A stretch of 39,035 bases of DNA, taken from UHGV virus genome UHGV-0212837; one strand, 5' to 3'. Positions 24,936 through 27,242 of the stretch are shown here, one piece after another. Made by a program: the position numbers and the translations under genes. The notes beneath the pieces are model-generated. The model saw nothing but the letters and a program-made list of their open reading frames with translations, was not told the DNA's origin and did not search any database. The stretch comes from a virus. Within the stretch, counting starts at the first letter, position 1. Each line of letters starts with the position of its first letter.

Positions 24936-27242
24936 ATGTCAGATATCACCGCAAATGTTGTGGTAAGCATGCCTTCGCAACTCTTCACTATGGCGCGTTC
25001 TTTTAAAGCGGTTGCCAATGGCAAAATTTATATCGGAAAAATTGACACTGACCCGGTAAATCCAGAAAACCAGATCCAGGTTTATGTGGAGAACGAAGAC
25101 GGCTCTCACGTTCCTGTTTCGCAACCAATCATCATTAACGCTGCCGGATATCCGGTATATAACGGACAGATTGCCAAGTTCGTAACTGTGCAAGGTCATT
25201 CTATGGCTGTGTACGATGCATATGGGGCGCAGCAGTTCTATTTTCCGAATGTGCTGAAGTATGATCCTGATCAGTTACGGAAACAGGTGGAGCATAATCT
25301 TTTTAATATTTGGAAAGAGCTATCTAATAGCTATGGTATTAATCTAATAGGAACATTTGAGTCAGGATTTACAATTGACGACAGGAGACAGGCAGGGCTT
25401 TTTCTTAAAGATGGTAAAGTTTATACAAGGAAAGGATTAGATAATGTTATTGTCCCTCCGGGGAGTTACCCAGAACCTTCATTATGGGAGCCTGTTTCTT
25501 TTATAAAAGAAGAAACAATATATGTAGGAATAGAACCATTTAAGTTACATGAAAGTAATGATGGTGCAAAAAATGATGAAATTCTTGAAAGGCTTGCGAG
25601 ATATATTGAAACAAGAAGTGGGCCTGTGAGGGTAATTTTTCCAAAAGGAGATTTTTATGTTGGAAGCCAGTATCTTTCAGGTGCGACAGGATTTGGCGGG
25701 TCTTATATACCAAACCAGAAATGTACAGTAAGAAATTTCAATTATCCACTGCGGTATGAATTTAATGATAGCAATTTTATTTTCTCAGATGGATTGCGGG
25801 TTGGGTCATTTGATCCGGTAACTGGCCTCCCAATTAAAACAATTCAAACAAATTTTGACTATCGTGCAAATAGAGGTATTTTATTTGGGTTTAATGGCTG
25901 TCCAATTGTTTCCATCTCAGGAAGAGTTAATATTGATTTCAATGGAAAGAGTGTAATATTAGGCGGGGAGTTCGGGGATTCTGGATATCAATGTCCAGAA
26001 TATGGATTTTGGTTTATTGATCATAAGGTTTTGATATTTGATGCACATTATACAGCATATGACGGAGCAATGGATGCTATTTATTTAGCAGGATTGAATG
26101 GAGATGATTGTTATTCACGAGTTACTAATTTCTCTATTAACAAAATGGGGCGTTCAGCTTTTGTTGTTGCTGGCGGAGACAATATTTATATTAGTGGCGA
26201 CGCCTATAACTCCGGGCTTGGTAGTATATCAAGTTCACCTGGACATAACTTTGCCATAGAGTCAGAAGTACGCAAAATTTCAAATGTAGTACTTGAAGGA
26301 GTTACTGCAAATGAAGCAAAATTCTCTTCATTTAGCATCTATAGGACTCAATCGAATCCAGTTAATGACATTAAGGTGGTAAACTCATATCTTTCAAATT
26401 CTTTCAACATAACATGCAAATCAAATACACCTAATTTAAAATACATTGATTGCACTTTTAGAGGGTTGATTGGAGAGCACAGAAATGAGTTCTTTGATCA
26501 TTCAGTCGACTTAAGAGCTGCAAAACTGATAAGATGTAATCATTATGATACCAAGCCAGACGGTTCTTTAACGAACGCATCAAATGGCACCCATTTTGAT
26601 AGTTCTAAAATAATTAGATTAACATTCAGTGAATGTAATATCATATCATCCGGGTTCAAGCCTGGAAGAGGAACAATAGGTTCAATATATGAAGCTGTAA
26701 TAGATGGCCTGACTGTCACTGTTAACGGAGATATCACGTTTGCCGCAACAAATGGTATAAAAATACTTAATTTTGAAAATCCAGTAAAGATAGAAAATTT
26801 TGAATTAATAAATAGGACAATAGGTAACGGCACAGATTCGCAACGAGCATATATAGGTGTGTCTGGAATTGAAAATGCATCTATAAAAAATGCAGCAATA
26901 TCAGGGGTTGGGCAAGAGAAAGACACCATACTTTGGTTGTATCCATTAATAAATTCCGGGGGAAGGGCGGGTCGCCTTGTTGATAGGGATGCCAAATCTT
27001 CTGTAGGGGCACAACAATTCCTTTCTTTAGGGACGGATTCATATTTGAATGAATCGCAGAATGTATCAGGGTATCAAAGAATATTTTCTGTAACACAGTT
27101 GCCAAAAACTGGATATTGGGTTAGAGGAGATGTTTTATTTTTCAAAAATCCTTCGCCAGGTGGTCACATTGGTTTTGTATGCACATCTTCTGGAGAAGGA
27201 GAAGGTGCAATATTCAAAGCATTTGGGGCAATAAGTCCTTAG
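24936..27242 (+). CDS. Tailspike protein: P22 gp9-type head-binding domain (first ~110 aa) fused to a divergent AT-rich receptor-binding domain
   Basis: [11 protein letters not shown]...NVLKYDPDQ matches P22 gp9 N-terminus; remainder unrelated to recalled P22 gp9; start at ATG 24936 with GGAG SD. Confidence 0.9.

Follow-up and report, generated by a model that had tools for sequence, protein, structure and literature searches.

A rare, AT-rich receptor-binding module on the tailspike of a P22-like Escherichia coli phage

Introduction

How does a phage tailspike come to join a P22-like anchor to a receptor-binding part that P22 does not have, and what would that part do at the bacterial surface? 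The question is raised by the tailspike gene of the UHGV virus genome UHGV-0212837, a stretch of 39,035 nucleotides (nt) that we call the window and whose positions are used throughout. In spikes of this kind the anchor is conserved by genus, while the receptor-binding part is defined at the level of the serogroup and its exchange between Kagunavirus and Lederbergvirus spikes has been documented (PMC10408124). We find that the gene encodes an ordinary tailspike of modular build, that it belongs to a temperate E. coli phage of the P22-like (Lederbergvirus) type, and that a conserved anchor is joined in it to a rare, unusually AT-rich receptor-binding module. Taking the evidence as a whole, we consider it quite probable that the spike is a P22-like two-module protein whose exchanged beta-helix module cleaves host surface polysaccharide by hydrolysis.

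Results

A P22-like anchor with an abrupt end

A first-pass annotation of the gene had assigned its first ~110 amino acids (aa) to the head-binding domain of P22 gp9, and this proved accurate: residues 1-113 form a full-length Pfam Head_binding domain (PF09008, E = 2.1e-67, profile positions 1-113 of 113). The anchor is ~70% identical in protein sequence to that of P22 gp9, 88% identical to that of the Sf6 spike and ~90% identical to those of Gally, IME10, CUS-3, N7 and HK620. Its DNA is 82-92% identical to that of 12 P22-like phages, until the similarity stops at positions 25274-25286. A megablast search against the phage collection likewise gave a match limited to gene positions 1-345. The full-length P22, Sf6 and HK620 spikes of the PDB aligned to the window protein over its first ~118-127 residues only, the full-length P22 spike chains 2xc1_A and 8tvr_A solely over residues 1-118, and neither the PDB sequence search nor Pfam at E ≤ 1 beyond aa 113 detected any similarity to P22 gp9 past the head-binding domain. 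Since these spikes match at the N-terminus only, there is no end-to-end similarity to P22 gp9. The same head-binding domain, gene position and junction after KYDPDQ are found in P22 gp9, Sf6 gp14, HK620 gp9, the CUS-3 endosialidase and epsilon34 gp19, and the overall plan, with a beta-helix as receptor-binding part, is that of P22-like tailspikes such as P22 gp9 and Sf6 gp14.

The base composition changes at nearly the same place. The GC content falls from 45.2% in 24936-25269 to 36.4% in 25270-27242, compared to 48.1% in the remaining window, and the interval of 1973 nt with the lowest GC in all 39 kb begins at 25301. The maximum-likelihood GC change-point within the gene lies at 25294, so that the boundary proposed by the first-pass annotation (25270, ~aa 110), where protein and composition were said to change abruptly, was right to within a few codons. 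The variable segment 25281-27295 has a GC content of 35.9% (binomial z = -11 versus background). The deficit is concentrated at third codon positions: the GC content at these positions (GC3) is 0.24 in the receptor-binding part, against a mean of 0.483 (standard deviation, SD, 0.058) for 42 open reading frames (ORFs) of the window, which places it 4.2 SD below the mean and lowest of all. The step from anchor to module is itself modest (45% versus 36%) and becomes larger when the module is set against the virion genes.

Two arms flank the exchanged segment

Similarity to the 12 P22-like loci resumes at 27296 (at 27317 or 27343 in some of them) as a block of 70-118 bp that ends at 27413 and is 90-96% identical in Sf101, Gally, JEP4, 683R2, 611R6, CUS-3, N7, 720R6 and IME10. 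The swapped segment extends from 25275/25287 to 27295 and is bracketed by conserved blocks in at least nine P22-like phages. On its 5' side the junction residues are aa 108-117, KYDPDQ-LRKQ. After DPDQ, many other P22-like spikes continue with LRQQ, and LKQL or FRAI are also seen; at the same point, relatives with the non-P22 anchor of the PF18668 type read GDA(A/S)-LR(K/P)Q. As LR(K/P/Q)Q occurs in P22-like and PF18668-type spikes alike, the joint sits on a short motif that the two anchor families share.

On the 3' side, the conserved block contains a hairpin, AAGGTGGA-TCAC-TCCACCTT, at 27344-27363 (8-bp stem, folding free energy -13.2 kcal/mol, z = -2.3) and, on the minus strand at 27353-27412, the relic of an IntS-type integrase gene. 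The relic comprises the last 19 codons, DKRREMMQWWSDWLDEKVE, followed by the stop codon, and may be compared with the end of the VCSW5 IntS (...WWADWLDEKVE, then stop); upstream of these codons the reading frame is destroyed and the rest of the gene is gone. A convergent IntS-type int still lies beside the spike in VCSW5, Gally, 683R2, N7 and JEP4, while the present int, on the plus strand at 27968-29146, encodes a different integrase. The relic therefore suggests that the cassette once adjoined a convergent IntS-type int and that the integration module was replaced later. The module is probably exchanged by homologous recombination between two arms, the anchor DNA at 24922-25286 and the ~118-bp block at 27296-27413.

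The same cassette on another backbone was found in E. coli VCSW5, the only one of 5,426 complete E. coli genomes with the module. VCSW5 carries it in a P22-like prophage at argW, with receptor-binding DNA 99.4% identical to that of the window. The cassettes are 98.6-99.4% identical but the backbones differ, including the immunity region and the integrase; the stretch in common is 24922-27412, with unrelated DNA on either side. Twenty of the 34 differences between the two cassettes fall before 25104 (window 24936-25104 versus L001 19667-19835), which shows a further recombination breakpoint at ~25104, within the anchor coding region. The exact protein of the window occurs in three assembled contigs, one of which (L018) is an integrated prophage beside dacD/sbmC-like host genes.

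Relatives of the module on three types of tail

A search of a set of 5.8 billion proteins with the receptor-binding part returned 15 matches at E ≤ 1e-3. The closest non-identical relatives, at 65%, 60% and 58% identity, have Tail_spike_N (PF18668) as their anchor. The first of them (P0002; loci L002 and L003) belongs to a temperate siphovirus-type enterobacterial prophage, where the spike gene is followed by an acyltransferase gene (Acyl_transf_3 plus SGNH) and an integrase; the second (P0003; L004) belongs to a Kagunavirus-like siphovirus with a backbone ~92% identical to that of phage Bas81. Both resemble the present spike over the full length of the receptor-binding part, from LR(K/P)Q onwards, at 60-65% protein identity and ~70% nucleotide identity over ~1.1 kb, but they differ from it in the Tail_spike_N anchor, the long non-contractile tail and a GC content of 42-43%. 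Relatives at ~45% identity (L023, L025, L026) lie in E217-like and T4-like myovirus tail modules. The anchors of the relatives are PF18668, tail-collar or others. Among deposited phages the best full-length match is p16 of Aeromonas phage phiARM81ld, annotated as a tail-collar fiber protein, to which 94% of the receptor-binding part aligns at 28% identity (E = 7e-51). Its homology is full-length and includes the C-terminal motif GD..P..G..GW.CT..G; its anchor, however, is of the P2-type tail-collar kind (a P2-like myovirus), its GC content is 51% and its host is Aeromonas.

The module, or a diverged version of it, is thus found on podovirus, siphovirus and myovirus tails. The module itself is rare, and its close relatives are very few. 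Among 1.84 billion representative proteins a profile search found 1,266 matches, just 30 of them below 1e-30, which indicates that the beta-helix family is broad and that the subfamily matching over the full length is small.

The first-pass annotation had read the locus as a horizontally acquired domain. Horizontal exchange of the receptor-binding module between phages is supported by four independent lines: the sharp DNA breakpoints in conserved flanks, the different backbone in VCSW5, the homologues without a P22-type anchor (45-65% identity) and the shift in composition. The part of that reading that drew on AT-richness stands less firmly: AT-richness alone is weak evidence for import, as discussed below, and no AT-rich donor was found.

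Predicted fold and candidate active site

An AlphaFold2 monomer model of the receptor-binding part was built from a 15-sequence alignment (predicted local distance difference test, pLDDT, 76.9; predicted template modelling score, pTM, 0.69). Residue numbers of the receptor-binding part plus 111 give those of the full-length protein; they are given second in the following brackets. The model predicts a neck helix (aa ~113-132; 2-21), a small beta domain (aa ~136-196; 25-85), a cap helix (aa ~210-226; 99-115), a right-handed beta-helix (aa ~231-671; beta-strand run ~120-560) and a C-terminal beta domain (aa ~711-768; 600-657). The predicted beta-helix has the right-handed fold of the pectate-lyase-like superfamily and, with the conserved residues described below, favours the receptor-binding or glycanase domain that had been suggested for this part, with glycanase activity likely. 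Searches by sequence were less informative. PF13229 and PF12708 gave no match for the window protein, whereas 17 of the 42 aligned relatives do match them; PHROGs returned nothing informative for the receptor-binding part except an unannotated PHROG at the C-terminus, and the PDB sequence search matched the anchor and nothing of the receptor-binding part. No Pfam match was obtained for a C-terminal Peptidase_S74 chaperone domain. Spikes of the CUS-3 and K1F endosialidase type have this chaperone, in contrast to the present spike, whose C-terminus is predicted to be a small beta domain that is kept in relatives.

Conservation points to a candidate active-site region within the predicted beta-helix (Table 1), with the putative catalytic motif GD.GYQ ... 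MGRS ... IESE. Across 42 aligned sequences, the most distant of them at 20% identity, R406 and E442 never vary, and D334, D348, Q352, D380 and E444 are at least 90% conserved; in an alignment that includes APK89 gp46 and the Aeromonas fibre, these residues and Y383 are all invariant. The same motifs are matched in crAss001 gp22 (7qoj) by the family profile, with E = 8e-20. APK89 gp46, the capsule depolymerase of an Acinetobacter Friunavirus, aligns to 46% of the receptor-binding part at 24.5% identity (E = 1e-10; Foldseek E = 4e-18). It is homologous to the N-terminal half of the beta-helix and has the same D/D/Q/D/Y/R/E/E set, but differs in its T7-like anchor, its C-terminal part and its substrate, the Acinetobacter K89 capsule, and the similarity is remote. 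It was shown by nuclear magnetic resonance and mass spectrometry to be a glycosidase acting by hydrolysis (PMC8092837). As the residues of the window protein are shared with a proven hydrolase, hydrolysis is the leading inference for its chemistry.

Gene start and neighbouring features

The mechanically called ORF, 24888-27242, is longer than the gene adopted here. Its in-frame upstream ATG at 24888 (24888-24935, 16 additional codons) was rejected, since the DNA is conserved from 24922 onwards and relatives have their annotated starts at 24936. The ATG at 24936 is taken as the real start for this reason and for two others: GGAG is found 7 nt 5' of it, at 24925-28, and the annotated start of the phage Gally spike aligns with it. 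The resulting length of 768 aa is the one assumed at first. A public metagenome-assembled genome annotation, DAO40410.1 (784 aa), uses the 24888 start and is probably wrong.

Table 1. Features of the tailspike locus, in window positions
Feature	Position	Strand	Description
Conserved leader with ribosome-binding site	24922-24935	+	Shared P22-like block begins at 24922
Tailspike gene	24936-27242	+	768 aa; start ATG 24936
Head-binding (tail-anchor) domain, aa 1-113	24936-25274	+	Ends KYDPDQ; PF09008; PDB matches to the Sf6, P22 and HK620 N-termini
Junction codons L114-R-K-Q117	25275-25286	+	LR(K/Q)Q motif at the anchor/receptor-binding boundary, both anchor types
Receptor-binding module, aa 114-768	25275-27242	+	Predicted neck helix, small beta domain, cap helix, beta-helix, C-terminal beta domain
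Candidate active-site region	25935-26267	+	D334, D348, Q352, D380, Y383, R406, E442, E444; from conservation
AT-rich 3' tail of swapped cassette	27243-27295	+	Only in same-cassette copies (VCSW5, L018-L020)
Conserved 3' boundary block, ~118 bp	27296-27413		Hairpin and IntS relic; 3' homology arm

The gene order is P22-like: the tailspike gene follows the gp7/gp20/gp16 ejection proteins (the gp16-family protein is encoded at 22467-24464) and the immI region, and precedes att and int. Over 77% of positions 1-24900 the backbone is 96.5% identical to phage IME10. The immI region (24465-24935) is reduced to a single gene for a 97-aa Arc/Mnt-like repressor at 24554-24847, on the minus strand; ant and arc are not found in it, whereas VCSW5, N7, 611R6, CUS-3 and epsilon34 carry ant. 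Downstream of the spike, a probable phage attachment site (attP) lies within 27660-27960. Identity to the integrated copy L018 is solid to ~27753 and lost after ~27770, and five direct repeats TG(T/C)GTACCA(A/G)A at 27664, 27676, 27915, 27926 and 27950, which look like arm-type integrase sites, flank this interval.

Elsewhere in the window, the tail needle gene (19058-19906) encodes a knob domain of the Sf6 type (PF16532), which suggests a second step on an outer-membrane protein, as in Sf6. A second low-GC island (36-39% GC) lies on the minus strand at 35739-36752 and comprises genes for a DUF2528 protein (35739-36107) and a 149-aa protein (36303-36752, phrog_3054); it is directly downstream of the N antiterminator gene (36761-37219), a typical position for accessory (moron) genes. 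A regulatory-type gene of the Rha/ORF11CD3 kind (8789-9400) lies between the lysis and terminase genes. The antisense and intergenic ORFs 26543-26995 (-), 27394-27696 (-), 27413-27583 (+) and 27608-27796 (-) have no family matches, no Rfam families or tRNAs were found in the window, and a consensus promoter and terminator scan was at or below shuffle expectation.

Discussion

We propose that the anchor (aa 1-113) would fix the spike, which by analogy would be a trimer, in the tail hub, while the module (aa 114-768) would bind host surface polysaccharide and cleave it by hydrolysis through a conserved carboxylate/arginine site (D334, D348, D380, R406, E442, E444). The target would most probably be O-antigen and less probably capsule. 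In this way the virion would get through to the outer membrane, and the Sf6-type needle would act from there.

Several observations weigh against this explanation. The structural model is that of a monomer, has moderate confidence and includes several loops with pLDDT below 50, and at E ≤ 1 Pfam still assigned the receptor-binding part to no family. Solved or characterised enzymes share only ~10-25% identity with it, and the chemistry rests on a handful of residues whose candidacy comes from sequence conservation; the carboxylates shared with APK89 gp46 are conservation rather than proof, the catalytic residues of that enzyme not having been mapped. The O loci of VCSW5, the sole complete lysogen (L005, NZ_CP082355.1 1847778-1876232), are ambiguous, with an intact wzm/wzt mannan cluster of the O8 family beside his (hisIE) and, at galF-gnd, a decayed wzy/wzx cluster of the O40 family, in which wzx is frameshifted and three ISAs1 pseudogenes are present. 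We do not claim O8 specificity: the O8-assigned receptor-binding subtype in the literature (G7C RBP1, MK-13 RBP1, fGh-Ecl02 RBP1) differs from the present module, G7C being absent from the tblastn matches and MK-13 being a remote fold match only. Finally, no AT-rich donor was found in the species-representative genomes, in IMG/VR or in the 5.8-billion-protein set.

The chemistry and the target can each be read otherwise. The beta-helix could be that of a polysaccharide lyase or an epimerase-like enzyme acting on a capsule or O-antigen that contains uronic acid. We regard this as improbable, as the matches behind it share just 7-13% identity and reflect the common beta-helix scaffold, while APK89 gp46, the closest in sequence among characterised proteins, is a hydrolase with all of the conserved charged residues. 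A weak argument comes from the intact O-antigen cluster of the lysogen, which is of the O8 family; O8 mannan is neutral and is not known to be a lyase substrate. A non-enzymatic adhesin that does no more than bind the receptor is less probable still, because invariant Asp, Glu and Arg residues are kept even in relatives at 20% identity, as well as in an enzyme proven to be a glycosidase, as expected of a catalytic site. The question of capsule versus O-antigen is closer. Among proteins whose function is known, those closest in fold and sequence are capsule depolymerases from phages of Acinetobacter and Klebsiella, the CUS-3 spike targets the K1 capsule, the Bas106 spike is annotated as degrading colanic acid, and the additional wzx/wzy cluster of VCSW5 at galF-gnd includes a pyruvyl transferase. 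These points would fit a spike directed at a group 1 or 4 K antigen or at colanic acid, which we nonetheless consider unlikely: the wzx of that cluster is frameshifted and the cluster is full of insertion sequence elements, and most of the P22-like spikes that have been studied are O-antigen specific (PMC10408124). The genes next to the spikes also favour O-antigen as the target, since the 65% relative (P0002) is paired with an O-antigen-type acyltransferase and since Sf101, 611R6 and HK620 have O-antigen-modifying genes in the slot after the spike, as does epsilon34. An acyltransferase gene is the usual partner of O-antigen-specific spikes. In the window, unlike these phages, no O-antigen-modifying gene (gtr, oac or acyltransferase) lies between the tailspike and int (27243-27967).

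The AT-richness of the module also has two readings, a recent import from an AT-rich donor or a general tendency of, or selection on, receptor-binding modules that circulate in enterobacterial phages. In 11 other P22-like spikes (the HK620 gene was not recovered and was left out), the GC content of the receptor-binding part is 37.0-45.4% and in nine it is below that of the 4 kb upstream; the JEP4 spike reaches 37.0% GC with a GC3 of 0.21. The relatives in L002 and L004 are likewise lower in GC than their flanks. Low GC is therefore a family tendency of P22-like receptor-binding parts, of which the present spike is an extreme, and for this reason AT-richness alone is weak evidence for import. 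No AT-rich donor lineage emerged either: two conserved peptide patterns scanned over one genome per species (185,579 species) gave no relative, an IMG/VR search gave just one 99% copy and no diverged relative, and all sampled relatives have 42-51% GC. Against a mere tendency, the module is the extreme case, with its GC3 of 0.24 below the 0.33-0.57 of the sampled relatives and 4.2 SD below the mean of its own genome, and the deficit lies at synonymous sites, pointing to mutational history rather than protein composition. The near-identical copies form a 90% cluster of 23 members, among them WP_000129898.1, WP_261784347.1, WP_458716892.1, HHI2526407.1 and HGU5678023.1, and all the named ones are from E. 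coli prophages, consistent with a recent arrival. On balance we find a general tendency somewhat doubtful as the explanation; the module looks as if it had once been in a pool more AT-rich than any sampled relative.

A bolder interpretation would combine these elements. The module may represent an uncharacterised glycosidase subfamily, the first on a tractable P22-like phage, directed at an E. coli glycan outside the range of all known tailspikes and recently imported from an unsampled AT-rich phage pool. The glycan could be, for example, an O40-like pyruvylated polysaccharide, or O8 mannan reached through a second, independent spike type. We advance this tentatively, as slightly less probable than its opposite; if true, it would provide a new serogroup-specific reagent and add a new catalytic motif to the tailspike repertoire.

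The first-pass annotation had further expected an O-antigen specificity different from that of P22. Given the E. coli/Shigella-type backbone this is trivially true, and the host range is expected to differ from that of P22. The principle of modular exchange is already well known, and the current understanding is unchanged (PMC10408124). What the locus adds is the anatomy of an exchange (its arms, junction motif and int relic), the distribution of the module over three tail morphotypes, a candidate active site and a caveat on the use of AT-richness. Receptor-binding modules decide which serotypes are infected and serve as typing and decolonisation reagents; the present one, rare and with no characterised close relative, probably extends the known range of glycan specificities by one. 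With its two recombination arms, a junction motif found in both anchor families and one module carried by three tail types, the locus is a clean example of how such modules move between phages.

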